IMG/VR virus record: IMGVR_UViG_2778261418_000011
Span: 1-15,956 of that record
Direction: 5' to 3' (one strand)
Length of the DNA stretch: 15,956 nucleotides
Source: a virus
Lineage: Duplodnaviria; Heunggongvirae; Uroviricota; Caudoviricetes
Shown: in pieces, positions 1 through 15,956 of the stretch
Layout of the letters: every line of letters starts with the position of its first letter
Position numbering within the stretch: the stretch's first letter is position 1
Position numbers and translations under genes: made by a program
Notes under the pieces: generated by a model
Databases searched by the model: none
Told to the model about the DNA's origin: nothing
The model's input: only the letters and a program-made list of their open reading frames with translations

Positions 1-344
1 GCATCCAGAAAACGGGCGTAAACCTTACGCCGGACCACCGTTCCGCCGACCAGACTCTGCAGATCTTCCGCCATCCCTGTGACCATGCCGTGCATATTAG
101 AGACTTTCAGCGTTGGCCTTGCACTGGCTCCTTTGCCGTTCATCTCAAATCCACTTCCCTGAATGGGATAGGCCTGATACTGCCGCCCCTGCCAGGTGAC
201 TGCTTCACCTTTTTCGTTCTGCTCATTACAGAAGAAATAACGATCTCCGCCGACCTCTGTCAGATCAATTTCCCAGAGCACGACCAGCGCGGATTGCTCC
301 GTTTTAGTGCACTCATTGAGTGTTTCCTGCTGTATATCCTGCAT
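1..344 (-). CDS. L: Minor tail protein L, N-terminal ~114 aa (gene continues past the window start)
   Basis: My own minus-strand translation from the ATG at 344-342 reads MQDIQQETLNECTKTEQSALVVLWEIDLTEVGGDRYFFCNEQNEKGEAVTWQGRQYQAYPIQGSGFEMNGKG..., which matches the N-terminus of lambda gpL as I recall it. The ATG overlaps the M stop codon (ATGA). It is absent from the ORF track because it runs off the window. Confidence 0.8.
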   Translation of the reverse strand, partial: MQDIQQETLNECTKTEQSALVVLWEIDLTEVGGDRYFFCNEQNEKGEAVTWQGRQYQAYPIQGSGFEMNGKGASARPTLKVSNMHGMVTGMAEDLQSLVGGTVVRRKVYARFLD

Positions 345-685
345 CAGTGAGTGACCTCTTCAAAGGTACAGTTAAAATCGGTATACATGGCATTATCCGA
401 AATGCTCCACTCCCTGCAGACAACCCGGACAGTCCTGTTGTGTTTTGGCGGACGCCACAAAAAAGCACGAATCCCGGCATGACGGGATAAAAAACTGTCC
501 AGCGCGGCACGGGAATATTCATCTGTGACACGAAATACCGGTTTAAACGTTTTCAGATCCGCATTCAGACCACCAGCCCGTCGCTGTTCATATCCGTCAC
601 CAAACTTTACCGTAATAACTGATGGCTTTCGTGTCGTCTCCATCCCCTCACGGGGGATCCAGTTAAAAACTTCAGGCTCAGGCAC
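344..685 (-). CDS. M: Minor tail protein M
   Basis: Track ORF 344..730 contains ...KPSVITVKFGDGYEQRRAGGLNADLKTFKPVF...FLWRPP..., matching lambda gpM (FGDGY, GLNANLKT, FLWTPP as recalled). The likely start is the GTG at 685-683, which sits 7 nt after a GGAGG and gives 113 aa; the ATG at 700 is an alternative. It overlaps the tape measure stop. Confidence 0.8.
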   Translation of the reverse strand: MPEPEVFNWIPREGMETTRKPSVITVKFGDGYEQRRAGGLNADLKTFKPVFRVTDEYSRAALDSFLSRHAGIRAFLWRPPKHNRTVRVVCREWSISDNAMYTDFNCTFEEVTH

Positions 686-3600: not shown

Positions 3601-3911
3601 GAGGCCTGCTTCAGACGGGCATTGACTGAATTCCACTCATCGGCGAGAGAAATAAGATGACCGGTAGCAAAAGCCCCGGCAAATGCCCCCGCCATGTTCA
3701 GTGCCGAAGATTTAGCTGTATTTATCTGATCCGTCACTTCTGCCAGTGCACGCCGCATTTCACGGGATGCAGCAGCGGACTGTCGGCTTCCATTCTGCAT
3801 GGTGCGGTAGTAATCCTGCCCCATACGCGAAGCCCGGGAGATCTCTGACTGAAATGACCGGGAGTTTGCCGAAATTTTAATAATCAGTTCACGTAATGTC
3901 GCCACACTCAT
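678..3911 (-). CDS. H: Tail tape measure protein (lambda gpH-like), 1077 aa
   Basis: Very long Ala/Gln/Glu-rich coiled-coil ORF with a central hydrophobic Gly/Ala segment and a C-terminus ending ...RRDGGLYSA, like lambda gpH (...RDGGLFS...). It lies between the G/T chaperone and M. The ATG at 3911 is only 1 nt from a GGAG; the GTG at 3905 has 7-nt spacing and may be the true start. Confidence 0.9.
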   Translation of the reverse strand: MSVATLRELIIKISANSRSFQSEISRASRMGQDYYRTMQNGSRQSAAASREMRRALAEVTDQINTAKSSALNMAGAFAGAFATGHLISLADEWNSVNARLKQASQSSDDFQASQRELMAISQRTGTAFSDNASLFARSAASMREYGYSSEEVLKVTEAISTGLKLSGASTAEASSVITQFSQALAQGVLRGEEFNSVNENGDRVIRALAAGMGVARKDLKAMADNGKLTADKVVPALISQLGALRDEYAAMPDTVSSSATKVENAFMAWVGGANEASGVTKTLSGVLNSIAGNIDTVATAAGALVAVGVARYFGNMASSAGSATAGLITAARNEVSLAEAQLRGTQIATARARAAVYRAQQAVVAARGTERQAAAEAKLTAAQASLTRNIAARTAAQTTLNNVTSVGSRLLSGALGLVGGVPGLVMLGAAAWYMMYQNQEQARESARQYAATIDEIRQKTSAMSLPEASDNEEKTRQALKEQNRLIDEQKSKIKSLQEKIAGYQYVLANPGWTTDNGFMINHMTSVKTVTEGLAEATNQLAVEQSRLTQMQGKAQSIQDVLAGLEERRVALIRQQAAEQNKAYQSLLIMNGQHTEFNRLLGLGNELLQQRQGLVNVPLRLPQATLDDKQQTALNNSERELALSRLKGEARERARLGYAADDLGFVGEAYQTARQNYINNSLDAWRNNQANKPKAHKKTEAEKTEDIYKRLIKQQKEQIALAGQNTELAKMKYQVSQGELSTLSEAQKKTLLQNAALIDQKKIREQLAAYESSLADSNASARASDEAQLLGYGEGSRMRERLQEMWSIRQTFEKKNNELLRQYQAGEIEEALWKQEKELNKKYLEERLSDQQDYYAKADALRNNWNAGLQEGLTNWADSATDYASQAADAVVSTMDGLVSNISDALAGNVVEWRNWGSSVLREVSKILMNAAIVNGLKSLSGAGGWLGTVGGWISGAVANAKGGVYTSANLSAYSNTIVDTPTYFAFAKGAGLMGEAGPEAIMPLTRAADGSLGVRAIGNVNGGGGFVYSPVYHISIQNQGSNGEIDARSARGLVDLIDSRVVSIMQSSRRDGGLYSA

Positions 3912-3921
3912 TCTCCGGACG

Positions 3922-3943
3922 AAAAAAAACCGCCGAAGCGGTT
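3922..3943 (-). terminator. Putative intrinsic terminator/attenuator between T and the tape measure gene
   Basis: Minus strand reads AACCGC-UUCG-GCGGUU followed by a U-run (plus-strand A8 at 3922-3929): a 6-bp stem with a UUCG tetraloop and U-tract, immediately upstream of the tape measure RBS. Confidence 0.35.
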
Positions 3944-3951
3944 ATGTTGAC

Positions 3952-4242
3952 TCACTGAGACACGGTTAAAAGCGCGTTTTCCAGCCCGGCAAATGGATCT
4001 GAGGCGCCTTCTGTCTGCTCCTGCTCCCACTGAAGAAGCACATCATTCAGTGGTACTTTAACCCCCTGCGCACCGTAAACAGCTGAAACAATCTGGGCAG
4101 CCCGGATATCAGCCCGTTCGTCCCCCAGCGGGCTGAACCTGTCAAATTCTGCCCACATCATGATTTCTGATGCGGACATTTCCCGGCGTAACTCTGACAA
4201 TGTGCGCCCCATCCTGAGCGCCAGCATCATCAGAAAACGCAT
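3952..4242 (-). CDS. T: Tail assembly protein T frame (C-terminal part of the G-T fusion made by a -1 frameshift)
   Basis: 96-aa ORF in the -1 frame relative to G, starting 12 nt after the G stop. This is the position and arrangement of lambda T; the slippery site is described below. Confidence 0.75.
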   Translation of the reverse strand: MRFLMMLALRMGRTLSELRREMSASEIMMWAEFDRFSPLGDERADIRAAQIVSAVYGAQGVKVPLNDVLLQWEQEQTEGASDPFAGLENALLTVSQ

Positions 4243-4253
4243 CCCCGGAAGTG

Positions 4254-4640
4254 CTACTTTTTTTTAACCTCTCCGGCATCACTGATCAGTTCCAGAGACT
4301 GGCGAAGAAGCCGGGCATGCACCGGGCCATACACGGCAATCACCTGTTCACGATCATCCTCTGAAAATACGGGTTGCAGCCCGGTATCACACAGAACATC
4401 AATGAACAGTTCAACGTCTGCCTCCAGATTTCGGCGGGCACGCTCTGCAACAGATGGCGATGTATCATCTTCCCTGGCTTTAACGATCTCCTGCCAGCGC
4501 AACCAGGCTTCTGCAGAAGGTTCCCGTAACACAACCGTTGCTCCTTCCCATTCAGGCACATCAACGGTTTTATGGCGAAACCCCGACATCGTTGCCAGTG
4601 CCAGATTACGGATATTTTTAGTCATCACATCCATCCTCAT
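4254..4640 (-). CDS. G: Tail assembly chaperone G
   Basis: Acidic ~125-aa ORF directly upstream of the tape measure and downstream of the major tail gene, ending ...GEVKKK on a slippery A-run. The TAATG overlap with the V stop supports the 4640 start; the ATG at 4625 has a better SD (GAGGA, 8-nt spacing). Confidence 0.8.
   Translation of the reverse strand: MRMDVMTKNIRNLALATMSGFRHKTVDVPEWEGATVVLREPSAEAWLRWQEIVKAREDDTSPSVAERARRNLEADVELFIDVLCDTGLQPVFSEDDREQVIAVYGPVHARLLRQSLELISDAGEVKKK
4257..4263 (-). other. Programmed -1 ribosomal frameshift site (slippery heptamer A AAA AAG)
   Basis: Minus-strand mRNA reads GTT AAA AAA AAG TAG. The heptamer A_AAA_AAG is in the zero frame at the last three codons of G, and a -1 slip continues as GTA GCA CTT CCG GGG ATG CGT..., which is the T frame. 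Confidence 0.75.
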
Positions 4641-5344
4641 TAACTGACGGTTACAGTGCAGGAAGTGGAGGTCACTTTGTTAACCGGGCTTGCTGAATCA
4701 GAAATCTCGCAGGTATACGCACCGGCATCACCGGATGCTGCTGATGCCTTACTGAACGTTGCCGCCGTCTGTCCGGAAACAGGAGAACCACCTTTCTTCC
4801 AGACATAAGAATAAGGCGGCACACCACCGGCAGCCTCAACCACCATTTCGAGTTTCGCTCCGGCAGAAACCTGCAGCGTGCTGTTTAAATCGACCTTCAC
4901 TTTCAGCGGTTCTGTCGTCAGCACAGGTTTACCTTTCAGGCGCAGGGAAAACGTTGCAGCCACAACACCATTGGTTCCTGCAGACCAGGTATGCTGACGC
5001 ACCTCTGCCATAAAGGTAAATCCGTTTCCTGACGGAAAAATAACTTTAAAGCCATACGTGGTGTCATTGTCATAGGCACTGCGCAACGCATTCTGGGCAG
5101 CATTGAGGTAAAAGTTGCCTGACATGGAAATCTCTGACGCGGCACCAAGACCGTTAATATTTTCCTGCTCAACAGAACACAGCGTGGTGACATCAATATC
5201 CTGCTTTTGTCCTGCGGTAAACTGCACCTCTTTGATTGTACAGCTCAGGCCAAGATAGCTGGCAGAATCCAGGGTTTCTGCTGTTACCGGTGCAGACGAA
5301 ATCATAATTTTCGTCAGTTGCGAACGCTCAAAATTAGAGGACAT
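4640..5344 (-). CDS. V: Major tail protein (lambda gpV-like) with C-terminal Ig-like domain
   Basis: 234-aa ORF in the V position. The C-terminal ~90 aa (..LKVKVDLNSTLQVSAGAKLEMVVEAAGGVPPYSYVWKKGG...YTCEISDSA...) looks like a bacterial Ig-like fold. RBS GGAG is 6 nt upstream of the ATG. Confidence 0.85.
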   Translation of the reverse strand: MSSNFERSQLTKIMISSAPVTAETLDSASYLGLSCTIKEVQFTAGQKQDIDVTTLCSVEQENINGLGAASEISMSGNFYLNAAQNALRSAYDNDTTYGFKVIFPSGNGFTFMAEVRQHTWSAGTNGVVAATFSLRLKGKPVLTTEPLKVKVDLNSTLQVSAGAKLEMVVEAAGGVPPYSYVWKKGGSPVSGQTAATFSKASAASGDAGAYTCEISDSASPVNKVTSTSCTVTVS

Positions 5345-5361
5345 ACTCGTCTCCTGAAAAT

Positions 5362-5382
5362 AAAAAAAACCGCCAGCGGCGG
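5362..5382 (-). terminator. Putative intrinsic terminator/attenuator upstream of the major tail gene
   Basis: Minus strand reads CCGCC-GCU-GGCGG followed by U8 (plus-strand A8 at 5362-5369), between the stop of the upstream gene (5405) and the V RBS. Confidence 0.35.
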
Positions 5383-5404
5383 GTGGGTAAAATCATTAAC
5401 GAAC

Positions 5405-5749
5405 TCAGGCTATTACCTGAAATTCAAGCGTGGCTCTGCTCAGACGGGATTCAGGATCATAACCCTGCGTTTTAGAAATAACGGAGGGTGCAAGTTCCCT
5501 CACCGCATCAAGCGCCTGTTCCCGGATATCATCTGCGTCATCAGGCACCGTTGCCCAGACATCGATCTGCACGGTAATTCTGGATTCAGCCTGACCATCA
5601 AGCACATCAGACGCCGTGTCAGACACCACAGAAAACACCAGCCACGGCGGAGATACCGCAGGTTTTCCCTCCGTCAGCGGGACCACATAAGGATAAACCT
5701 GTCCTCCGGCCAGTTGAGACAGCAGGGAATACAGTGTGGCTTCCCTCAT
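5405..5749 (-). CDS. Tail completion / tail terminator protein (lambda gpU position; family not recognised with certainty)
   Basis: 114-aa ORF between the gp10-like gene and the major tail gene, with an ATGA overlap to the upstream stop. Assignment rests on gene order; no obvious similarity to lambda U in my recollection. Confidence 0.55.
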   Translation of the reverse strand: MREATLYSLLSQLAGGQVYPYVVPLTEGKPAVSPPWLVFSVVSDTASDVLDGQAESRITVQIDVWATVPDDADDIREQALDAVRELAPSVISKTQGYDPESRLSRATLEFQVIA

Positions 5750-6195
5750 TTACTTAAGACCTCATCAATAGCCTGATTCATTCGCTGTATGGCAACCTGC
5801 GCCGCCAGCTCCTCTGTCGTATCGAAAGCCGGGCGAATGAATGGATGCGCGGGCATGTTTATCGTTCCCAGCTCCACAAAGCGCCAGTAAAACGCATTTC
5901 GGGGATCGCTGGCTTTCATGCTGTTATCACTGTTTCCGGTTCGCAGGTTCCGTCCGCGAATATGGATACCAGAAATAATTTCCCCCCGACGCTTTGAGCG
6001 CTGAGTCAGAACAACCACATTTTTCTTCAGTTTTCCGGTTCGCTCCGGCGCACGTTCAACAACCGCATCCCGCATAACTTCAGCACCGGCACGGGTGGCA
6101 TCGCGCAGCACCTTATTGTTTTCTGCCCTGCTGAGCGTCTCCAGATCCCGTGCAATATCCGCCAGACCTGAAAAATCAAGACTGAAATCCATCAC
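5746..6195 (-). CDS. HK97 gp10-family head-tail protein
   Basis: 149-aa ORF containing ...NMPAHPFIRPAFD..., which I recall as characteristic of the HK97 gp10 family. Sits in the head-tail joining block. Confidence 0.7.
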   Translation of the reverse strand: MMDFSLDFSGLADIARDLETLSRAENNKVLRDATRAGAEVMRDAVVERAPERTGKLKKNVVVLTQRSKRRGEIISGIHIRGRNLRTGNSDNSMKASDPRNAFYWRFVELGTINMPAHPFIRPAFDTTEELAAQVAIQRMNQAIDEVLSK

Positions 6196-6530
6196 ACATT
6201 CCCCTTCAGACTGCAGAGCATTTCAAGCCGGGTGGCGCGTGCATCCGGTATTGGTGGCCCTTCTATACCAAGAGTGACCCCTTTAAATGCACCGGTCAGC
6301 ACTTTCAGACGTGAAGTCGCTGTCACATCGCGCCGAAATCGCATCCAGACTCTGACCGTAGCCTGAGCGGTTTCTGCACCTCCTGATATTCTCTCCCTCC
6401 CGCTGATCCCCTTAACTTCTGCCCATACGGTTGCCCCCTCCGTCATTGTCTCCACCGGATGCCCTGACGGAGAACGGACGGTGGTGACATTCAGAATAGT
6501 TACGCGATCACGTAATCTGCCCGCCTGCAT
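6192..6530 (-). CDS. Head-tail adaptor / head closure protein
   Basis: 112-aa ORF downstream of the gp6-like connector, with a strong RBS (AGGAGG) 4-5 nt upstream of the ATG. Assignment by size and position in an HK97-type head module. Confidence 0.65.
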   Translation of the reverse strand: MQAGRLRDRVTILNVTTVRSPSGHPVETMTEGATVWAEVKGISGRERISGGAETAQATVRVWMRFRRDVTATSRLKVLTGAFKGVTLGIEGPPIPDARATRLEMLCSLKGNV

Positions 6531-6538
6531 GGTTCCTC

Positions 6539-6856
6539 CTACAAAGGAATAAAACGATAAGGCTCCAGCAGAGAAGAAAAACCAAACGGGACTGGTGCCT
6601 TGCTGACATCTGAGGAATTTTCCCGGTTTTCGTACCAGTGTCCGACCAGCAACATGAGCGCCAGCAAAACATCATCAGCTATAAGCACCCCGTCAGGATC
6701 ACCTTCCGGCACCGTCTCCTCATAAAGCTTACGGTTGATAAAATTTTCTGCCTTGCGGCAGGCAGCCCGGAAATACAGCATCAGTAACTCATCATCAGTT
6801 GCATCATCTGTATCAATACGGCACTGCGCCCTGAGTTTTTCCACTATTGCTGCCAT
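6539..6856 (-). CDS. Head-tail connector protein (gp6-like)
   Basis: Track ORF 6539..6901 would overlap the capsid stop. The ATG at 6856 (MAAIVEKLRAQ...) has AGGAG with 6-nt spacing and is the likely start. Acidic ~105-aa protein immediately after the capsid gene. Confidence 0.65.
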   Translation of the reverse strand: MAAIVEKLRAQCRIDTDDATDDELLMLYFRAACRKAENFINRKLYEETVPEGDPDGVLIADDVLLALMLLVGHWYENRENSSDVSKAPVPFGFSSLLEPYRFIPL

Positions 6857-6900
6857 CAGAAACTCCTGCCCGCAACACTGTGCGGGCATAAAAAACCGCA

Positions 6901-8127
6901 TTACGCAGCGGCTTTCTGGCGGGTTGCGGCCCCAATTTTCATCAGCTTAATCGCCTGAGAATCCACCAGCATACCGCCGGTTCGCTTGGTGGTGTAAAAA
7001 CCCACAAACGGTTTATTGGTGTACGGATCGCGCAGGATACGGGTACCGATGCGATCAACGATGGTATAGCCACGTTTGAAGTTACCAAACGCAATGGCTT
7101 TTGCATCGGCAGCAATATCCGGCATCTGTTCATTCTCAACGATGCCATACCCTGCCAGAGAAGAAGGCTGACCCAGCTCAATACCCGGACGCCACAGATA
7201 ATTTCCGTCGTTATCCTTCAGCAGACGAATGGCAAACAGGCTGCTGTTGTTCATCATAAACTTCGCGCCGCTGCGGTGCGCCTTGCGCAGGGTGTAAATC
7301 AGTTTAATGATCGCATCGGCAGTCACGCCGGAAGCCGCACCGGAAGCAATGTGCTGAAGTTTGCCAAACGCACGGGTCTTGTCATCTTCATCGGTGGACT
7401 CGTAAGCCAGAAAACCTTTTGGTTTTTTGCTGCCGTCGCCACTGGTAAAGGCAATTTCTTCCTGCTCGGCAAATTCCAGCGCCAGCTCACTGTTGATCCA
7501 GTCTTCCACATTGAAGAAAGCATCATCGAGCATTTTCTGGGTGGCCTGCGGGTTGCCGTAGATTTCCCCCATAAAGGGTTCAATCAGACCCAGTTTTGAG
7601 GTGGCGGTTTCCGGACGAGCATCCGTTTCCCCCACCCATCCGGACGTTGTGCCGCCCAGATTCACCAGTTTTTTATAATCCGAGCCACCGAGGGTGATCA
7701 CAGTGGCTTCCTGGCGCATCACCACCTCATCTTTCAGCAGCGTCAGGATGGTACGATCCAGTTCTTCCGGAATGGCATAACCACCATCTTCATCATTACC
7801 TACCTGAAGCGCCTTACGTTCAAGTTCACGCAGACCGTCTTCACGCCCCTTGCGCATAAATCCGATAAACGCTTCTTTGTGTTCACCGGCAACTTTATTT
7901 TGCGTGCCGCCTGCCGGACGCTTGATGTCTGCCAGCTCTTTTTCCAGGTCGCTTTTCAGGTTCTCCAGCTCGCTGATTTGCCCGTTCAGGCTTTCCACCT
8001 GTTCGGCCAGCTTGCCTTTTTCCTGTTCGATCGCGTCAATGCGCTTGTCGTTTTTTGCCTTAAAATCGTCAAACTTCTGCTGCAAATCCTGCGCGACCTG
8101 TTCAACGTCTTTAATATCAACAGCCAT
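6901..8127 (-). CDS. Major capsid protein, HK97 family, with N-terminal coiled-coil delta (scaffolding) domain
   Basis: 408-aa ORF whose N-terminal ~100 aa is a heptad-rich coiled coil (..QKFDDFKAKNDKRIDAIEQEKGKLAEQVESLNGQISELENLKSDLEKELADIK..) followed by a capsid body. It sits directly after a prohead protease with no separate scaffold gene, as in HK97. Confidence 0.9.
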   Translation of the reverse strand: MAVDIKDVEQVAQDLQQKFDDFKAKNDKRIDAIEQEKGKLAEQVESLNGQISELENLKSDLEKELADIKRPAGGTQNKVAGEHKEAFIGFMRKGREDGLRELERKALQVGNDEDGGYAIPEELDRTILTLLKDEVVMRQEATVITLGGSDYKKLVNLGGTTSGWVGETDARPETATSKLGLIEPFMGEIYGNPQATQKMLDDAFFNVEDWINSELALEFAEQEEIAFTSGDGSKKPKGFLAYESTDEDDKTRAFGKLQHIASGAASGVTADAIIKLIYTLRKAHRSGAKFMMNNSSLFAIRLLKDNDGNYLWRPGIELGQPSSLAGYGIVENEQMPDIAADAKAIAFGNFKRGYTIVDRIGTRILRDPYTNKPFVGFYTTKRTGGMLVDSQAIKLMKIGAATRQKAAA

Positions 8128-8140
8128 TATTTACTCCTGA

Positions 8141-8791
8141 TTAAAATTTAAGATTTTTCAGTGCATTCAGTGCGGCATCCACATCCTCAGCATCACGCAG
8201 GGATAAAGCGCCATATCCCCCGGCCATGAATGCTTTGGCCTGGGTTCGCGAGAGTCCAACATCGCGCAAGACCCGCTCAATAATTTTCTGATCAGGGATC
8301 TCCCCACGCGCCAGCGCATTTTTCACATCGCTGATGCGTGCTTCATCATTGGAAGGAAACGTCACCAGACTGACCTCCCACAGGTCGATCTCTTTCAGCA
8401 GGAATACCCCTTTTTCCCGGTCGTACTCCCAGTCTTTCAGGATGTAGCCAATAGAAAGGCCGGTTAAAGAACCGGCCTTCATATGGGCATGTGCACGTTT
8501 TGCCAGGGGATCATCATCAATGAGTAATCGTCCCCTGACATAAAGCCCGACATCATCTTCTTTCATTTCGGTGTACACACCGATGGGCTCATCCATGCGG
8601 TGCTGCCAGAGCAACGCAGGCAGCGCCTTTTTTTCGCTCCATTTCTGGAGTGTTGTGGTAAAGGCTCCGGGGACCACCACATCATCGTGGCTGTCCTTAA
8701 CACCAAAAACAGAACCGTAACCTTCAAATTCCCCGGAATCACTGACGGATTTCAGGTTCAGCGGTATATCAAGACGCTGTTTTGTCTGCAT
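8141..8791 (-). CDS. Prohead protease, HK97 family
   Basis: Track ORF 8141..8821 lies between portal and capsid. The likely start is the ATG at 8791 (MQTKQRL...), with GGAGAG 5 nt upstream; it overlaps the portal 3' end. Confidence 0.85.
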   Translation of the reverse strand: MQTKQRLDIPLNLKSVSDSGEFEGYGSVFGVKDSHDDVVVPGAFTTTLQKWSEKKALPALLWQHRMDEPIGVYTEMKEDDVGLYVRGRLLIDDDPLAKRAHAHMKAGSLTGLSIGYILKDWEYDREKGVFLLKEIDLWEVSLVTFPSNDEARISDVKNALARGEIPDQKIIERVLRDVGLSRTQAKAFMAGGYGALSLRDAEDVDAALNALKNLKF

Positions 8792-10010
8792 CTCCACTCT
8801 CCTTTTTCTTACCGTTGTCATCGCCAGCAGAGGGACTGGTGGTCATGTTCATCGGTGTCAGATACACATCACCGCCCGGTCGGGGATTCATATCTTCCAG
8901 ATCACGGCAGTCATTAGGGGAATAAATCCCCCAGTTGATCCCCGTGGCATACGCTTCAAAGCGGGATTTCATGTCGCCACGCAACAATGCTCCGGCATTA
9001 AACTTGGCGTAAAATTTTCCCTGCTTGCTCTCCCTGACCAGCCCTGTATTGATCCGCTGCTCAATACGGGTCAGATACGGCACAAGGGAATAGTTAATGA
9101 AACCAAGCCCCAGCTCTTCAATATTGTTGAAGGTGGCGCGATCGGTGTTCTGCACCATATGCAGCGGCACGCGGAACAGGCGACAGATTTCTTCCAGCTG
9201 AAACTTGCGGGTTTCCAGGAACTGGCTGTCCTCGGCATTCAGTGCCACCGTTTTCCAGTCCAGCCCCATTTCCAGAATCATCGGACGATGAGAGTTTCCC
9301 AGCCCGACATGCCGTTCCTCAAAATCCTTTTTGATACGCGCATAAGCCTGGTCAGAAAGTTGTTGATCCGTACGCAACACACCGGATGTTACCGCGCCAT
9401 TGCCAAACAATCTGGCACCATGCTCCTCGGTTGCCGCTGCCAGTGAAATGGCCTCGCGCGCATATGCAATGGGATTCAGACCGACAAGTCCATCCAGCGT
9501 CAGGGTACGCACATGCCAGATTTCATTCTGGGTCAGCACATCCACGGAACCATCCGGAAACGTCACCTGATAAACCGGCTGCCACTGGCTGTTCAGCTTC
9601 GGTTCCACACAGCCCGGATCTATCGGAAGAAGCTCCACCACTTCCCCCAGTGCCTTTACCTTGTAGGCGTAAAAATTACCCCGCAGACACAGGCAGACGA
9701 TAACCAGTTCCCAGAATTCCTGCGGCGTCATGTAGCCATTGGGTTTTGCCGAAATCAGCTTATGCAGCCGTTCATCCACCGCCCGTGTTTTAAGGGTGCC
9801 GCTGATTTTGTAGAGACTGCAGGGCAGCATACCAACAGACTCAGCCAGCACCCTGACGCAGGAATAGACCGCCGTCAGCCGCATGGCCCGCTGGCTGCTG
9901 ATCCGCTTTCCGGTATAGGTGTCGTATGACAACCCCAGCTCTTCCGCAAGCATCCCGGGCGTTGTGACGGGGGTGTTATTTTTGCGTTGAAAAAGCCCCT
10001 GGAAAAACAT
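8769..10010 (-). CDS. Portal protein, HK97 family
   Basis: 413-aa ORF directly downstream of large terminase and upstream of the protease, with an acidic C-terminus. RBS GGAGGTGA precedes the ATG. Confidence 0.9.
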   Translation of the reverse strand: MFFQGLFQRKNNTPVTTPGMLAEELGLSYDTYTGKRISSQRAMRLTAVYSCVRVLAESVGMLPCSLYKISGTLKTRAVDERLHKLISAKPNGYMTPQEFWELVIVCLCLRGNFYAYKVKALGEVVELLPIDPGCVEPKLNSQWQPVYQVTFPDGSVDVLTQNEIWHVRTLTLDGLVGLNPIAYAREAISLAAATEEHGARLFGNGAVTSGVLRTDQQLSDQAYARIKKDFEERHVGLGNSHRPMILEMGLDWKTVALNAEDSQFLETRKFQLEEICRLFRVPLHMVQNTDRATFNNIEELGLGFINYSLVPYLTRIEQRINTGLVRESKQGKFYAKFNAGALLRGDMKSRFEAYATGINWGIYSPNDCRDLEDMNPRPGGDVYLTPMNMTTSPSAGDDNGKKKESGDADKTAS

Positions 10011-10192
10011 TACTCACCTCCGGAGGCGACCCGGTGACCGCGATCGAGATAACGCGCAACCAGCCACGACCAGCACAGACACAGCGCCCCGACAACAACA
10101 AAACCTGCCGGGGGATAAATCAGCCAGGCGCCATACGCCAGCAAAAGCGCCCCCAGCACGCCCACCAGTGGCGTGAGAATTATCAGAAACAT
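10010..10192 (-). CDS. Small hypothetical membrane protein (60 aa, two predicted transmembrane helices)
   Basis: [63 protein letters not shown] fills the 193-bp gap between terminase and portal. GAGGG lies 5 nt upstream of its ATG, and its TAA overlaps the portal ATG (TAATG). Confidence 0.45.
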
Positions 10193-10203
10193 AATGCCCT
10201 CGG

Positions 10204-11961
10204 TTAAAGCGAGCGAATACCAACGCTGACCAGATGCTCAGACAGATCCGGCTCCGGTTCACCGCCATTGACCAGCATCCGGCTCATTGCTGTAAACATC
10301 GCAACAGGACCGTCGATTTTGGCTTCAGGCGTGGATTTGTTCGGGAAGATATTGTCGTTTTTGTCCGGTTTTACCGTAACGTTAGACATCATCCAGTTCA
10401 TGACCGGGTGATTGCTGTGGTGAAAACGCCCGGCATAGACCAGTGATTCCGTTTCCTTCATAGCCTCTGACAGATTGCGGACCGTCTGCGGAACTTCCAC
10501 CAGCGGTATCCCTTCTTCAGCCAGAGCCAGACTGAACTGCATTGCACTCCACGGGTCAAATCCCAGCTCCCTCAGGTTTTCACCACCAATCCATTCCAGT
10601 AAGTCACTTTTTATCTGAGCATGATCGATAACATCACCATCCGTCAGGATGAGCTTATCCATCTCCGCCCATTTCCGGTAAAGTTCTGCCTGCTGCCGCG
10701 AGCACCGCTCCAGCCGTCCTTCCGGGAGCCAGAATTTAAAATCAGCATGAACATGTCCGTTATCGGTTCGCCAGAGTTTTGCCGCCGCACAGATATCAAT
10801 CTTATGAGCAAGGTCGACGCCGACCCACATGGGATACGTTTTAAGCTCATGTCGTGGGGCAATATATTCGCATTTCTCCCACTTAATCATGTCCATCCAG
10901 GCAGACTCTGCTGTTACCCACACATTCATGTGTTTGGTAAAAAAATTCACCCGCGCAGAGACCTGTTCTTTCGCTTTTTTCGCCAGACGACGCAGATCAT
11001 CCCAGCGTTTACAGATGCCCAAGCCGGGATTCGCTTTCTGCCAGACCGTTTCATCAAACGGATCATCTCCCTCATCGAGCGTGTAAATAATCGCAAAGTA
11101 GGAATCATCTTTTACCGCGCCCTCCACGTCGCTGTTATAGCCTCGCAATACCTTGATGGCGTAATCGCGTTGCTCGTAACAAATCCCTTCCTTGTTAAAG
11201 CCCGCCGTGGTGATACCAAATAACAGGGACTGCAGACGGGCACCGGTTGCCGTTTCCAGAACGTCCCACACGTCGCGGGTTTTATGTGCATGCAGCTCAT
11301 CAATAATGGCGCAGTGGATGTTCAGACCGTCCAGGTTGTTTGCATCCGAGGAAAGCGGTTCAAATTTTGATGCGCTCTGCTCCTGGTAAATCGCCAGCTT
11401 GTTGAAATCAAACAATCGCCCGAGTGTCGACCGGGCTTTTCTGACCATATTTTTGGCGTCTTCAAACACAATTCTGGCCTGGTCACGCGTGGTTGCGGCT
11501 GAATACACCTCAGCACCGCCTTCACCATCTGCCCCCGTCATATACAGGCCGATACCCGATGACAGGGTTGATTTTGCGTTTTTACGGGCGACTTCGTTGT
11601 ACGCCGTACGGAACCGGCGCACCATCACCGGACGTCCGCTGCCATCGCTGCGCATGACAACTTCCCCGGTCTCTTCATTAACCAGCGGAATGACAAAACC
11701 AAAAATATTAATGAGGATAAATACATGCCAGTCCATCAGTTCAATGGGCTGGCCTGCCAGCGCCCCTTTTACATGGGGCACAAATTTGTAGAAATTCAGG
11801 ATGTGCTGCGCACGGGGTTCACTGAAATAAATCCCCCGCTCTTCGCCGTACTTCAGATCATCAAGAAAACGCTGGCAGGCCAGACGGACAAATTCGCCAG
11901 CGACAATTTCTCCTGCAACAACACGTTCGGCGTAGCGGATCCCGTCAGCCACTTTTGCCAT
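10204..11961 (-). CDS. Terminase large subunit
   Basis: 585-aa ORF in the canonical position between small terminase and portal, with an ATGA overlap to the small-subunit stop. Length and composition fit an ATPase-plus-nuclease large terminase. Confidence 0.9.
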
Positions 11962-12443
11962 CAGTCTCTCGCTTTTAAAAGTTCCGCCAGCGGATCAACA
12001 TCATCCGGTCCGGCGGTATTTACTTTCGCCCGGCTTGCCGGTGACATACCAAACTCTGCAAGCATCGCCCGGATCCGCTTCCAGGCATCCGCTTTCATCG
12101 CAGCAGCCGGGTGTGCCTTAATCAGCACATCACCGTTCTGCGTTTCCGTGCGGTAGGTATAACCCTCAACATCGAGTATTTCGCAGTGATGCCGGTATTC
12201 GGTGTAGGCTTCCACCAGCAACTCGAGTGCACGCGCATCAAGCTGAGAAATGATCCCTTCCGCATTCAGTTCTTCCGCCATTCGCCTGAACCAGTACTTC
12301 CCCTGCGCCCCTAAATGTTGCGGAATTTTAGGGAGACCTTTTTCGTCCTTTTTAGCGGTTTTTTTGGGGTCTTTAACGGGGCGCTTTGATGGGTTGCCTC
12401 GTATCAAATGCAGGCGTGGCGGGGTTTTCGGGGGTCCTGACAT
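11961..12443 (-). CDS. Terminase small subunit
   Basis: 160-aa ORF with a basic N-terminus (..KTPPRLHLIRGNPSKRPVKDPKKTAKKDEKG..) immediately upstream of and overlapping the large terminase. Resembles the P27-type small terminase as I recall it. Confidence 0.75.
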   Translation of the reverse strand: MSGPPKTPPRLHLIRGNPSKRPVKDPKKTAKKDEKGLPKIPQHLGAQGKYWFRRMAEELNAEGIISQLDARALELLVEAYTEYRHHCEILDVEGYTYRTETQNGDVLIKAHPAAAMKADAWKRIRAMLAEFGMSPASRAKVNTAGPDDVDPLAELLKARD

Positions 12444-12590
12444 AATCGGTTTTACCTATCAATCGTTTAATCGCATTCCCAAAAAAAAGTTTTCGAACCT
12501 GCGGCGATGCGAGGAAAGGTCAGGCGGCGGTACTGAGCAGCCAGGGCTGCAGGGATTTTACCCGCCCCTCCCCACAAGTGAGAATAATTA

Positions 12591-12941
12591 TCACCTGATT
12601 CGTTCGCGCGCTGTTTTTGCTTTGTGGCAGGGCCAGCACAGACTCTGCAGGTTGCTGTCTGCATCTGTTCCGCCATGTGCTTTCGGGATGATGTGGTCGA
12701 CAGTTTTCGCCTCGCGCACCACACCGACACGCAGACACAACTGACACAGACCTTTATCGCGCTTCAGAATACGGGCTCGAATCACCGTCCATTTTGAGCC
12801 ATAGCCACGCTGGTGGCGGCTCAGTCCGCGCTGGTGCTGCACCCAGCCTTCACCCCGATGTTTATCGCAGTAGCCAGAGCTGTCTGTTGTTGTGCCTGCG
12901 CAACCTCGCTTACGGCATGCGCGGGGGATTCGTGATGGCAT
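12591..12941 (-). CDS. HNH endonuclease (phage packaging-associated)
   Basis: C-terminal motif ...VDHIIPKAHGGTDADSNLQSLCWPCHKAKT plus an N-terminal Cys cluster. The likely start is the ATG at 12941 (MPSRIP...), with AGGAG at 6-nt spacing. Sits upstream of the terminase genes as in HK97-like phages. Confidence 0.85.
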   Translation of the reverse strand: MPSRIPRACRKRGCAGTTTDSSGYCDKHRGEGWVQHQRGLSRHQRGYGSKWTVIRARILKRDKGLCQLCLRVGVVREAKTVDHIIPKAHGGTDADSNLQSLCWPCHKAKTARERIR

Positions 12942-13023
12942 TGGAATCTCCTTAATACCGGCATTATCGCAGCCCCTCACTGAAGGGCTGCTGTAATGCC
13001 TGTTACTCAGTAACAACTGCGCC

Positions 13024-13299
13024 TTACGGTAATTTCATGAAGGCAAATACCGGACAGCCCGGATGACGAGCATCTTCTGTTGCTTCCAGCATTGATTCAC
13101 CAAACCACTCCGTCGTGGCACGACCATCAGCAGCTTTGTAGTGGAGCAAGTACTGGTTTTCGCCATCCGCATACTGAGCGCGAGCTTTAACCTCACCCCA
13201 TTCATCACTGATGCGTACTTCCACCAGTTGTGACAGTTCAAACTTAAACGGAATAGACGCGACACCAACTAAAATCGGTTTATTTTCTGTTTTTTCCAT
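13024..13299 (-). CDS. Hypothetical protein (~92 aa), function unknown
   Basis: Track ORF 13024..13350. The only SD (AGGAG) precedes the ATG ATG pair at 13302/13299, so the true product is probably MEKTENKPILVGVASIPFKFELSQLVEVRISDEWGEVKARAQYADGENQYLLHYKAADGRATTEWFGESMLEATEDARHPGCPVFAFMKLP. No family recognised. Confidence 0.5.
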   Translation of the reverse strand: MEKTENKPILVGVASIPFKFELSQLVEVRISDEWGEVKARAQYADGENQYLLHYKAADGRATTEWFGESMLEATEDARHPGCPVFAFMKLP

Positions 13300-13473
13300 C
13301 ATCGTCTCCTGATATCGAAGCCCGTCGCCGCACCGGGCGCTGATCAACATTTGAGTATTCGCGGCGAAAGAAAGAATTTATTTTATTGAATGACCGCAAA
13401 CACAGAATTTCATGCTTTCCGGGCGCTGACGCATCCTTCATTTTTCAGCAAAATATTCTGCTCTTACGGGCGA

Positions 13474-13656
13474 TCAGTTCTGCAGACACTGCCGAACACC
13501 GTCAACAATTTCGCAGACCTGAGAAGCCGTATCGAAAAGCTGGCGCGCCTTATCCAGGCTGACGCATCCCACCAATAAAAAAGGCACCAGTATCGCTACC
13601 AGTGCCCATTTCGCCGCCGTTCGCGGCATTCTGTGTGTCCAGTGTTTTCGCGCCAT
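13474..13656 (-). CDS. Small putative lipoprotein (60 aa; lipobox LVGC, ~30-aa mature peptide with 3 Cys)
   Basis: MARKHWTHRMPRTAAKWALVAILVPFLLVGCVSLDKARQLFDTASQVCEIVDGVRQCLQN has a basic n-region, a hydrophobic h-region and an L-V-G-C lipobox. Its start lies 1 nt after the stop of the upstream 37-aa ORF. Confidence 0.45.
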   Translation of the reverse strand: MARKHWTHRMPRTAAKWALVAILVPFLLVGCVSLDKARQLFDTASQVCEIVDGVRQCLQN

Positions 13657-13657
13657 A

Positions 13658-13771
13658 TCACCACCAACGCACAGCCCAAATCAGAACAGCGACCGCCACA
13701 AGGCGAATTGCAAAGGCCGCAGCCCTTGTCAAATCAAGGCTCGCGGGAGTTTCCATTTCAATACCTTTCAT
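13658..13771 (-). CDS. Small hydrophobic peptide (37 aa, C-terminal transmembrane segment)
   Basis: My own translation of an ORF below the track's size cut-off: MKGIEMETPASLDLTRAAAFAIRLVAVAVLIWAVRWW. GAGG lies 9 nt upstream of the ATG. Positions checked codon by codon. Confidence 0.25.
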   Translation of the reverse strand: MKGIEMETPASLDLTRAAAFAIRLVAVAVLIWAVRWW

Positions 13772-13863
13772 AATGGACAACCTCAAAAAGAATCTTTTAT
13801 ACTTTCCCACGAGGATTTTCTCCCTACTCACTAATCACAATTTCCCCTTTGACGTGAAAACTA

Positions 13864-13896
13864 AAAACCCCGGACTGTTCCCCCAGCCGGGGTTTT
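13864..13896. terminator. Bidirectional intrinsic terminator downstream of the endolysin
   Basis: Perfect 10-bp stem AAAACCCCGG / CCGGGGTTTT (13864-13873 and 13887-13896) with a 13-nt loop. A/T-rich flanks on both sides give a U-tract in either orientation. Begins 8 nt after the endolysin stop. Confidence 0.55.
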
Positions 13897-13903
13897 GTTT
13901 TAC

Positions 13904-14287
13904 TTATCGCTTCAGCTGAAAGTGAGGTCCGTCTTTCAGCGTTTTCCAGTCCCCGCCCCATTCGATAGCGATCCCCAGCTCTGCGGCAGCCTGCTTAAAT
14001 GCCTGTGCGATTTTCTCGTACAGAGGCCACTCCCATGACACCTGGCTGCCGATGTAGGCCACAACATCCACCGCATCACCGGTCAGGTGGCGGCTGTTCA
14101 TGGTCTGGCTTTTCCCTTCCGCAACCAGCTGTTTCTGGCGATACTTACTGCGCAGGCCTTCCGTAATACCGAAATCAACCTCCGTCAGCTCCAGCGCACG
14201 GCGAACTACAGCAACCAGCTGTGGTTTGACACCCTCCAGATTTTTTTCACTGCGACGGCTGAATCTGAATTTACCCGGCATATTCAC
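13904..14287 (-). CDS. Endolysin, peptidase M15 family (L-alanyl-D-glutamate peptidase type), no signal-anchor
   Basis: 127-aa ORF with the metal-ligand pattern ...SRHLTGDAVDV... and ...DGPHFQL, typical of M15 zinc peptidase endolysins as I recall. Hydrophilic N-terminus. ATGA overlap with the upstream holin-like gene. Confidence 0.8.
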   Translation of the reverse strand: MNMPGKFRFSRRSEKNLEGVKPQLVAVVRRALELTEVDFGITEGLRSKYRQKQLVAEGKSQTMNSRHLTGDAVDVVAYIGSQVSWEWPLYEKIAQAFKQAAAELGIAIEWGGDWKTLKDGPHFQLKR

Positions 14288-14559
14288 CTCAACAATGGAA
14301 AGATTTTTGTGACGTTCCCGCGTGCGCGTATCACCAGCACGCAGAACAGCAGGTTAAAAAACACTTCCAGCCAGCCCGTTGCTAACGGGCGACCACACAG
14401 ATAGCTGAGGGGCGCAAAGGCATACAGCAGCATCAGCAGCCAGGCCAGCCATGACATCAGCGGTTTATGTCTGGAATCACGGCGACGATAAAAAAAGAGC
14501 GTCAGCACGATAACCGTGCATAACGCCACATTCAGCAATCCGGGAAGGTTACTTAACAT
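14284..14559 (-). CDS. Holin-like membrane protein B (91 aa, about three transmembrane helices); possible holin or antiholin
   Basis: Track ORF 14284..14613. The likely start is the ATG at 14559 (MLSNLPGLLNVALCTVIVLTLFFY...), with GGAGGAGG at 5-nt spacing. It lies directly upstream of the endolysin. Confidence 0.55.
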   Translation of the reverse strand: MLSNLPGLLNVALCTVIVLTLFFYRRRDSRHKPLMSWLAWLLMLLYAFAPLSYLCGRPLATGWLEVFFNLLFCVLVIRARGNVTKIFPLLR

Positions 14560-14941
14560 TGCCGCCTCCTCCACCCCGCAGGCGGGAAAACAGGACGGAC
14601 ACCAGCGATGCAATATCCTGTTGGTGGATAAACGACAGAATCTTTACCGACACCACCGATACCAGCACCGCACACAGTGCATCCGCCGATGTACCGTCAT
14701 AACCTGTTTTTGCTGCAATCCAGGCTGACAGCACGCGCGCTCCCAGCACGCCGACAATGAACGACACCAGAAAATGTGCCGCCACCCGCCAGGCTGAAAG
14801 CGCCTGCGGCATCGTTGCCACAAACAACGCTCCGGCGAACGCCCCAAACACAATCCCGAAATCCGTCCCGGTAAACAGTCCGAATACCGTCGCCCCGCCG
14901 AGCGCAGCGGCTGTACCAGAACCGGATAAGGGTTCAGACAT
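14549..14941 (-). CDS. Holin-like membrane protein A (130 aa, several Gly/Ala-rich transmembrane helices)
   Basis: First gene of the lysis cassette, with GGAG 8 nt upstream of the ATG. Its Gly-rich C-terminus (RLRGGGGGNVK) is encoded by the SD of the next gene. Confidence 0.6.
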   Translation of the reverse strand: MSEPLSGSGTAAALGGATVFGLFTGTDFGIVFGAFAGALFVATMPQALSAWRVAAHFLVSFIVGVLGARVLSAWIAAKTGYDGTSADALCAVLVSVVSVKILSFIHQQDIASLVSVLFSRLRGGGGGNVK

Positions 14942-15183
14942 ACTTTTTCTCCTGTAAAGAAAAAAGGGCCACCAGCAGCCCGCAAAAAAACGCCCACCAA
15001 AGGCACCCGCAGATGCCTTTGGTGTGGAGTTATTTGATGTGCGCCGGTCGTGGCGCGAGGAAGTGAAATAAGACTTACCTGAAATTAAGGTTAATCTTAT
15101 GGTTTAAACCATTTTTAATGCTTAGTAATATGAACTCGTCCCCAGAAGGGGCCAATACTTATTCTTCTTCACGGACTTTGTCC

Positions 15184-15215
15184 CGCGGCGTTAATCCGAC
15201 AGCCGCGCTTTTTTT
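15184..15215 (+). terminator. Plus-strand-oriented terminator-like hairpin
   Basis: CGCGGC (15184-15189), 12-nt loop, GCCGCG (15202-15207), then C and T7 (15209-15215). Confidence 0.4.
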
Positions 15216-15250
15216 GCGCCATATTCATCGCTGACTTATATGGCATTGCC

Positions 15251-15286
15251 ACACGGACATTATCAGTGTCCGTGTTTTCTTTTTTT
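15251..15286 (+). terminator. Plus-strand-oriented intrinsic terminator
   Basis: Perfect 9-bp stem ACACGGACA / TGTCCGTGT with a 7-nt loop, followed by TTTCTTTTTTT. Confidence 0.55.
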
Positions 15287-15297
15287 GAATTCAGAAT

Positions 15298-15324
15298 AAA
15301 AAAAACCGCCCAATGGAGGCGGTT
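15298..15324 (-). terminator. Minus-strand intrinsic terminator between the tRNA array and the lysis cassette
   Basis: Minus strand reads AACCGCC-UCCAUUG-GGCGGUU followed by U8 (plus-strand A8 at 15298-15305). Confidence 0.6.
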
Positions 15325-15688
15325 GGTCAATGCATGAGATCAATCATTTTTATTGTAATAGAAATCGAGGTGTCGGGTGCCTCCCGAAATATCCATCCCT
15401 ACAACAGATATTGTGATTCCCCGTTAAACCACTATATAAACCACCCTCGCACTGAGGAACACCTCTGCGGTGCTGTTTACAACACCAGAATGATGCTTCA
15501 CCGACCCTGCCAGGAAATACAAAATCTCCACCGATAATGCATCATTCTGCTGCCGTAAAAATTCAGCACTGAGGCTACACCCGACCTCAAATCATAGCCA
15601 GAGAACAGAATACCATTTAAACACAATCCGCTCCCACGTAATAAAAAATACGCCAGTGCTGTAATACAATAAGGCTTATTACAAATGT

Positions 15689-15763
<75 letters not shown>

Positions 15764-15766
15764 ATA

Positions 15767-15842
<76 letters not shown>

Positions 15843-15844
15843 AC

Positions 15845-15921
15845 TGGACCGCCACCGGGGACTCGAACCTCGCACACTTAACTTAAAGGGTTGACGCTCT
15901 TTCCTGATGAGCTAGTGGCGA
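15845..15921 (-). pseudogene. Degenerate tRNA-like gene (possible decayed tRNA-Arg-like member of the array)
   Basis: A 77-nt cloverleaf can be drawn (acceptor stem with U1-G72, D-arm GCUC/GAGC, T-loop UUCGAGU, encoded CCA). However the anticodon loop is CCUUUAA (C where U33 is normally invariant), and there are A-C mismatches in the anticodon and T stems. Confidence 0.4.
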
Positions 15922-15922
15922 T

Positions 15923-15956
15923 TGGTGGCCCTTGCTGGATTTGAACCAGCGACCTG
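15923..15956 (-). tRNA. tRNA 3' fragment (T-arm and acceptor end; resembles E. coli ileX-type tRNA-Ile2), truncated by the window edge
   Basis: Reverse complement ...GGTCGCTGGTTCAAATCCAGCAAGGGCCACCA gives a T-stem GCUGG/CCAGC, T-loop UUCAAAU, acceptor 3' strand and CCA. The anticodon is outside the window. Confidence 0.5.

Follow-up and report, generated by a model that had tools for sequence, protein, structure and literature searches.

We analyzed a stretch of 15,956 nucleotides from a viral genome record (IMG/VR IMGVR_UViG_2778261418_000011, positions 1 to 15,956; in the following, the window), which is part of a phiP27-like prophage of Escherichia coli. A 60-residue open reading frame (ORF) downstream of its M15-type endolysin gene is the fourth gene of the lysis cassette and stands at the position held by Rz/Rz1 in other phages. 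Its product is an o-spanin-like, putative lysis lipoprotein without an i-spanin, which has already been catalogued, but with a doubtful partner. The small membrane peptide encoded directly upstream is, together with the terminator preceding it, a separate and optional insert and not the partner of the lipoprotein. The original prediction for this region had described both ORFs, and we confirmed them on the minus strand: a 37-residue peptide with a C-terminal transmembrane segment is followed, after one nucleotide, by a 60-residue lipoprotein with the lipobox LVGC. For the coordinates of all features see Table 1.

The lipoprotein matches the PROSITE rule PS51257, with an Arg or Lys within the first seven residues, the core AILVPFLLVGC and the lipobox cysteine at position 31. 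The residue at +2 is valine and not aspartate. The signal peptide is the sole hydrophobic stretch of the protein, which contains no C-terminal transmembrane domain. The mature part comprises 30 residues including Cys31, Cys48 and Cys57, all three invariant in the family. Substitutions in the lipobox are confined to permitted residues (Val, Ala, Met or Ser at −2, Gly or Ser at −1). The earlier assignment as a predicted lipoprotein holds. The N-terminus is conserved at the protein level as M-x-R-K-H-W-T-H-R, with the stretch K-H-W-T-H-R-x-P-R, and we therefore take the 60-residue start to be the real one instead of the 51-residue start that is frequent in RefSeq. For 49 distinct alleles of the lipoprotein gene dN/dS is ~0.17. 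In the body of the peptide gene the window and phage GER2 differ at 19.5 of 27 synonymous and at 5.5 of 84 non-synonymous sites. Both are genuine genes under purifying selection and not chance ORFs.

The lipoprotein family forms 156–188 clusters at 90% identity, all from Enterobacterales (E. coli, Shigella, Salmonella, Citrobacter, Cronobacter, Yersinia, Enterobacter and Lelliottia). Of 5426 complete E. coli genomes, 317 (~6%) contained the gene, with up to seven copies per genome. An exhaustive hidden Markov model (HMM) search of 1.84 billion representative proteins yielded 24 relatives, all of the same narrow, small type, so that no larger family could be linked to the lipoprotein. Pfam (E ≤ 1), NCBIfam, PADLOC and PDB sequence searches gave no match for the lipoprotein or the peptide, and the PHROG families that they match (7528 for the lipoprotein, 4493 and 1115 for the peptide) are without assigned function. 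The earlier statement that the two proteins are unlike both classical i-spanins and the proline-rich Rz1 is supported.

For a survey of the genomic context ~100 related loci were gathered, and 84 non-redundant ones were classified. The lipoprotein gene follows the endolysin gene directly, with neither peptide nor terminator in between, in 40 of the 84 loci: in 34 it stands behind an M15 endolysin with a gap of 14 nucleotides, in six behind a GH108 endolysin. The stop and start codons of the two genes overlap by four nucleotides (ATGA) in the Yersinia loci and in locus L101. The lipoprotein gene is translationally coupled, or nearly so, to the endolysin gene. A short peptide of the window type precedes it in 20 loci, at variable distance from an M15 or GH108 endolysin, and a longer peptide homologue (48 or 60 residues) in 15, usually with a peptide of PHROG 4906 between it and the lipoprotein. 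The few remaining arrangements contain other inserts (a 93-residue ORF, KilA-N, a phiP27-specific insert of ~490 nucleotides).

Wherever the sequence upstream of an intact copy was long enough, an endolysin gene lay within ~1.1 kb, and the lipoprotein gene was never found away from one. It is combined with two endolysin families (M15 and GH108), with three holin families (the pair Phage_holin_8/Phage_holin_3_7, and the lambda-S-type) and with several unrelated packaging modules. Because holins, endolysin family and packaging modules vary, the lipoprotein gene can be said to travel with the endolysin end of the lysis cassette. A holin-specific partnership was rejected on account of the varying holin families.

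No Rz/Rz1, Sasha-type spanin or other i-spanin candidate was observed in any locus with an intact lipoprotein gene, and tblastn searches with four spanin pairs were negative for the lipoprotein loci. In the complete genomes of phiP27 and phiSTEC1575-Stx2k Rz/Rz1 was not found anywhere. A lipobox scan of both genomes and of the window gave no other candidate in a lysis context, by which a second lipoprotein or an embedded Rz1-like ORF elsewhere was rejected. In Sashavirus, annotated i- and o-spanins stand behind endolysins closely related to this M15 enzyme. The lipoprotein takes the place of Rz/Rz1 in three contexts: immediately behind the endolysin, behind the short peptide, and behind the long plus the second peptide. 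The same peptide modules precede Rz/Rz1 in GER2, O104:H4 and PhiR12_2. The location in the spanin slot had been recognized correctly. Only two decayed lipoprotein copies were found, in GER2 and in the O104:H4 Stx2 prophage. Each contains several in-frame stops, and both occur together with Rz/Rz1, which fits redundancy with spanins. They lie at ~2989–3168 of L097 (GER2) and 3442–3609 of L103 (O104:H4), 3' of Rz/Rz1 and a gene for an ais-like phosphatase and before the terminase genes.

The same survey bears on the possibility that the lipoprotein is a cargo or lysogenic-conversion gene, for example one that excludes superinfecting phages or modifies the surface, like Cor, Llp or Bor, and is merely located in a post-endolysin hot spot. 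Varied inserts at the junction between endolysin and packaging genes would be in line with this, as would the high copy number in some genomes and, in the window, the terminator between the endolysin and lipoprotein genes. In most loci, however, the start codon overlaps the preceding gene or is 14 nucleotides away from it, and a separate promoter is missing. The gene contains a terminator, copies apart from an endolysin are missing, decay is seen only where Rz/Rz1 is present, and there is no match to defence or exclusion families. We consider a cargo function unlikely.

A spanin pair has been published for phiP27. Kongari et al. (2018, PMC6139136) listed this phage as having a 'separated' two-component spanin with the shortest periplasmic length, 62 residues, and the lower end of their combined periplasmic range (62–300 residues) is the phiP27 call itself. 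Their o-spanin, a singleton (20706..20861 of the phiP27 record), predicted to be 83% helical (PMC6139136), is the direct homologue of our lipoprotein with 95% identity. Their i-spanin (20348..20542) is a 64-residue ORF with a TTG start and no PHROG match, antisense to a 90-residue ORF that matches PHROG 36812 (phrog_36812) over its full length. It lies inside an insert of the phiP27 subtype only and is absent from the window. For these reasons it was rejected as a conserved partner, and as judged by the sequences the published phiP27 pair is very probably half wrong. The RefSeq entry of phiP27 (NC_003356.1) additionally annotates CDS L32 in the wrong frame with respect to the conserved lipoprotein ORF (L003/L011, record 20348–20861). 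The literature searched contained no experiments on the lysis genes of P27 or on orphan o-spanins.

Disulfides between molecules are important in Rz1, and the conserved cysteines would suit a true o-spanin whose inner-membrane partner has escaped recognition. This partner might be a host envelope protein, a holin, or the uncleaved precursor of the lipoprotein itself, held in the inner membrane by its conserved signal peptide and disulfide-linked to mature copies in the outer membrane. The unusually conserved n-region and h-region of the signal peptide point in the same direction, and so does the published o-spanin listing for phiP27 (PMC6139136). On the other side, the holin families vary, no phage partner is conserved (the 64-residue phiP27 ORF is missing from most loci), and the RNA hairpin described below accounts for at least part of the conservation seen in the h-region. 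A true o-spanin with such a partner seems rather unlikely to us.

Small membrane peptide module

The 37-residue ORF (ATG 13771, end 13658) encodes the peptide MKGIEMETPASLDLTRAAAFAIRLVAVAVLIWAVRWW. It has only one hydrophobic stretch, located at the C-terminus, with the strongest 17-residue segment at residues 18–34. Its TGA stop codon is separated by a single base from the ATG of the lipoprotein gene. An alternative GTG start at 13810 would extend the peptide to 50 residues. Divergent homologues have a start codon at this place, 13 codons 5' of the ATG, and share a basic stretch M-x-K-Y-K-x3-L-R-L in the additional region. Synonymous divergence is low between GTG 13810 and ATG 13771, and this stretch may be regulatory, coding, or both; the evidence on the two starts points both ways. 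The choice affects the net charge of the N-terminal tail, which is −1 in the 37-residue and +3 in the 50-residue form.

The terminator is kept with the peptide in all variants of the module. The module is also present in lambdoid phages with canonical spanins. In GER2 and in the O104:H4 Stx2 prophage the order is holin S, lysozyme R, terminator, 37-residue peptide, one nucleotide, and Rz with embedded Rz1. PhiR12_2 has R, a long peptide, a second peptide and Rz/Rz1, and in locus L043 the same two peptides are followed by the lipoprotein. This second small membrane peptide (~43 residues, PHROG 4906) is encoded 3' of the long peptide, at 3862–3996 in L043 and 2698–2829 in L096, and precedes either Rz/Rz1 or the lipoprotein. 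A 401-nucleotide probe over the junction of peptide and Rz was covered to at least 80% in 669 of the 5426 E. coli genomes, the terminator-peptide module of the window in 126. The comparison of 669 genomes with these 126 and with the 317 that carry the lipoprotein gene shows the peptide to be an independent, mobile accessory gene, usually partnered with Rz. Its description as half of a two-gene unit with the lipoprotein does not hold: it is absent from about half of the lipoprotein loci and commoner upstream of Rz/Rz1.

A minimal spanin pair had also been suggested. In such a two-component spanin the peptide, with its N-terminus outside and a C-terminal anchor, would bind the lipoprotein, and the pair would fuse the membranes after degradation of the wall. 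Stop and start codons one nucleotide apart suggest coupled translation, the charge of the 37-residue form is compatible with translocation of its tail, and C-terminally anchored i-spanins were raised as a possibility by Kongari et al. (PMC6139136). With the 50-residue start, though, the tail would be cytoplasmic. The peptide is missing from the 40 direct-junction loci and from several others, and an identical peptide stands before canonical Rz in the 669 genomes mentioned above. The optional occurrence of the peptide and the small part of it that could face the periplasm (at most ~16 residues) leave the suggested pair highly improbable, and the context survey led us to reject the peptide as an i-spanin. 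Among the features of two-component spanins, we found a predicted lipobox signal without Asp at +2 and the location in the lysis cassette 3' of the endolysin. Neither an i-spanin gene (in the window, the 84 loci, and complete phiP27 and phiSTEC1575-Stx2k) nor a family match was found, and the available length of 30 mature lipoprotein residues plus at most 16 of the peptide falls below the published 62–300 residues.

Possible roles for the peptide are a modulator of lysis timing or a toxin-like small membrane peptide. Like Lcc6 of Shewanella phage LambdaSo and antiholins it is, in its 37- or 50-residue form, a small single-pass membrane protein within a lysis cassette. It is not homologous to them and differs in the terminator that it carries upstream and in being optional.

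A type I toxin-antitoxin-like module, concerning the peptide only, would consist of the peptide as hydrophobic toxin and a cis-antisense RNA. On the plus strand a promoter-like site (13774–13803) points at the two-way terminator. A speculative antisense RNA of ~85 nucleotides would run from the former to the latter over the upstream start and ribosome-binding site of the peptide gene. Size (<60 residues) and hydrophobicity of the peptide are typical of such toxins, the terminator is of the two-way type, the 5' stretch has low synonymous divergence, and the same spacing of promoter and terminator was read by eye in the divergent long-peptide variant. The fold z-score for this candidate antisense element is −2.8. 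The number of promoter-like sites, however, is no higher than chance (one found, 1.5 expected), and a recombination boundary or the ribosome-binding site would be other reasons for the low divergence. An Rfam scan of the region returned only sub-threshold noise and no match. We rate this module as weak and quite unlikely.

Hairpin inside the lipoprotein gene

An 11-base-pair hairpin followed by UUUUUUAUU lies within the signal-peptide codons (13607..13572), with a folding energy of −21.7 kcal/mol and z = −3.25. In ten sequences from E. coli, Salmonella, Citrobacter, Yersinia and Lelliottia, with protein identities down to 60%, it is nearly invariant at the nucleotide level, third codon positions included. 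Codons with an invariant amino acid were also invariant in their nucleotides in five of seven cases within the hairpin and in one of ten elsewhere (one-sided Fisher test, p = 0.018). Within the hairpin stretch, synonymous divergence reaches about half the value for the remaining gene. In phiSTEC1575-Stx2k a Leu-to-Pro exchange turns a G-U pair of the hairpin into G-C and results in a stronger stem.

Terminators are located before the holin genes, after the endolysin gene and inside the lipoprotein gene. In the common arrangement, with the lipoprotein gene directly behind the endolysin gene, transcription leaving the endolysin gene meets its first terminator in the embedded hairpin. Plausibly, the hairpin would stop non-antiterminated transcription before a full-length lipoprotein message is made. 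Such a block would make sense for a product that does harm whenever it is exported. If the hairpin 5' of the first holin gene (14985..15024) is a site of the tR' type, this would imply that the cassette is read by antiterminated polymerase only. Genes for the antiterminator Q are found upstream in related loci.

Candidate mode of action of the lipoprotein

An AlphaFold model of the lipoprotein consists of a single long helix (residues 12–59) with a hydrophobic moment of 0.4–0.65. In a straight helix Cys48 and Cys57 are located on opposite faces, so that disulfides would link separate molecules; a bend at the conserved Asp-Gly would allow a C-x8-C loop instead.

From the gene context and these sequence features we propose that synthesis of the lipoprotein is confined to the late phase, when antiterminated transcription passes three terminators, of which one is intragenic. 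The precursor would be exported by Sec, processed by Lgt, Lsp and Lnt, and thereby lipid-modified and cleaved at Cys31. With valine at +2, Lol sorting would carry it to the inner leaflet of the outer membrane. There the 30 residues would form an amphipathic helix, with Cys48 and Cys57 free for disulfide-linked oligomers, and this helix would weaken or rupture the outer membrane once the endolysin has removed the wall. A single gene would thereby replace the spanin complex. The insert of peptide and terminator lands between the endolysin and whichever gene for the outer-membrane step comes next, in E. coli prophages mostly canonical Rz.

We give about even chances to the core of this proposal, namely that the lipopeptide breaches the outer membrane after removal of the wall and does so without a phage i-spanin. 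The more specific form is tentative and in our view distinctly less probable: P27-type and related prophages of Enterobacterales, including Stx2e and Stx2k phages, might have a third kind of outer-membrane step, carried out by one lipid-anchored helix of 30 residues with no partner. It would work on the outer membrane from the inner side, perhaps together with the conserved signal peptide, and would be silenced by the embedded terminator until late antitermination. An activity of the precursor, or of the signal peptide once released, is hinted at mainly by the strong conservation of the signal peptide's cytoplasmic tail. The outer membrane might be compromised by direct perturbation of its inner leaflet, through PldA activated in the manner of colicin lysis proteins, or by the lipoprotein paired with a host protein or its own uncleaved precursor.

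Several points weigh against this proposal. Thirty residues are too short to span the periplasm, and to our knowledge no stand-alone outer-membrane lipoprotein mechanism has been demonstrated in phage lysis. The mature part has a net charge of −1, is not cationic and is similar neither to disruptin nor to the colicin lysis proteins. The confidence of the structural model is moderate (pLDDT 68). Conservation of the N-terminal tail KHWTHRxPR goes beyond a simple signal-peptide function. The position behind the endolysin is a known hot spot for cargo, into which KilA-N and other ORFs have been inserted, and the argument from pseudogenes comes effectively from one lineage of Stx phages.

The lipoprotein shares with the Rz1-type o-spanin of lambda the location after the endolysin, the predicted nature of a small outer-membrane lipoprotein, conserved cysteines and a 60-residue precursor. 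It differs in being without an i-spanin, and in a mature part of 30 residues that is helical and proline-free, whereas Rz1 is proline-rich and unstructured. As for the unimolecular spanin gp11 of T1, one gene in the lysis cassette encodes the protein, and the lipoprotein signal is N-terminal. Without a C-terminal transmembrane domain and with ~30 instead of ~100 periplasmic residues, however, the lipoprotein cannot bridge the membranes. About 13–15% of phages of Gram-negative hosts are without a recognizable spanin, and disruptin is the only alternative shown to work. Disruptin (phiKT gp28), which replaces spanins in a spanin-less phage, is likewise a small amphipathic helical protein, but it is cationic and neither exported nor lipid-anchored, whereas the Sec and Lol pathways are predicted for the negatively charged lipoprotein.

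The colicin lysis proteins (Pfam Lysis_col) are of the same size class, with mature parts of ~28–33 residues, terminator-limited expression and an action on the outer membrane that could be exerted alone. Colicin lysis genes are guarded by terminators, and the cloacin release protein has a stable signal peptide. The lipoprotein, with the lipobox LVGC, might accordingly act like a bacteriocin release protein and, perhaps with a stable signal peptide, activate PldA and render the outer membrane leaky; its gene is also guarded by terminators and its signal peptide conserved. We find this quite improbable as an explanation, since there is no match to Lysis_col (E ≤ 1) or any other family, the mature part is helical and Cys-rich instead of Gly/Ser-rich, and the gene is located in a phage lysis cassette with no colicin context. 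The release-type lysis lipoprotein of the original prediction is retained in the sense of a stand-alone lysis lipoprotein, which fits best, and not as a member of the colicin lysis family.

The cassette is common: besides ~6% of the complete E. coli genomes it occurs in Salmonella, Citrobacter, Yersinia and Enterobacter/Lelliottia. Shiga-toxin phages, whose toxin is set free by lysis, have it as well. Should the orphan lipoprotein perform the outer-membrane step alone, it would be a new and very small lysis effector, directly testable by complementation of lambda Rz/Rz1, and both the published spanin assignment and the RefSeq annotation of phiP27 would be corrected. If it has no role in lysis, these phages would join the spanin-less group and the lipoprotein would be a conserved cargo gene in need of another explanation.

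Surrounding features of the window

The window is 97–98% identical to many E. coli chromosomes, and 90–95% identical over parts to the phages phiP27 and phiSTEC1575-Stx2k. All genes of interest are located on the minus strand. Their order in the downstream direction is three tRNA genes, a hairpin, the genes of Phage_holin_8, Phage_holin_3_7 and the M15 endolysin, the two-way terminator, the 37-residue peptide and the lipoprotein. A soluble 108-residue ORF follows 3' of the lipoprotein gene, then an HNH endonuclease and the small and large terminase subunits.

Table 1. Features of the lysis region and its neighbourhood (positions refer to the window).
Feature	Positions	Strand	Remarks
tRNA genes Gly-tcc, Thr-tgt, Lys-ttt	15689–15921		three genes; where related phages have tRNA genes and stx
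Strong terminator-like hairpin	14985..15024	−	13-bp stem and T-run; just 5' of the first holin gene
Holin-like membrane protein	14549..14941	−	Phage_holin_8; Pfam and PHROG matches
Second holin-like protein	14284..14559	−	Pfam Phage_holin_3_7; 91-residue ATG start taken from RefSeq homologue
M15 family endolysin	13904..14287	−	L-alanyl-D-glutamate peptidase type; Pfam and PHROG matches
Two-way terminator hairpin	~13857..13901	both	CCCCGG/CCGGGG with flanking A- and T-runs; 3' of the endolysin gene
Promoter-like site	13774..13803	+	TGGACA-18-TATACT; 10 of 12 matches
Small membrane peptide	13658..13771	−	37 residues (50 from GTG 13810); C-terminal transmembrane helix; PHROG 4493/1115
Prolipoprotein	13474..13656	−	60 residues; lipobox LVGC; PHROG 7528; occupies the Rz/Rz1 position
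Terminator-like hairpin with U-tract	13572..13607	−	in signal-peptide codons; GGGCACUGGUAGCGAUACUGGUGCCUUUUUUAUUGG
Soluble ORF	13024..13350	−	PHROG 1935, phiP27 L33; between lipoprotein and HNH/terminase genes; non-membrane

A toxin gene is absent from the window between the tRNA genes (15689–15921) and the terminator at 14985–15024. In a prophage of Yersinia kristensenii (locus L100, 5988–7140) genes with Enterotoxin_a and LT-IIB domains, corresponding to A and B subunits similar to those of heat-labile enterotoxin, are located a few genes 3' of the same lysis cassette. In Yersinia phage vB_YenM_281 (L093, 1851–2479) a related M15 endolysin is followed by a 112-residue membrane protein and a 76-residue lipoprotein (LISGC). 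Both are annotated as hypothetical and may be another unannotated pair for the outer-membrane step.

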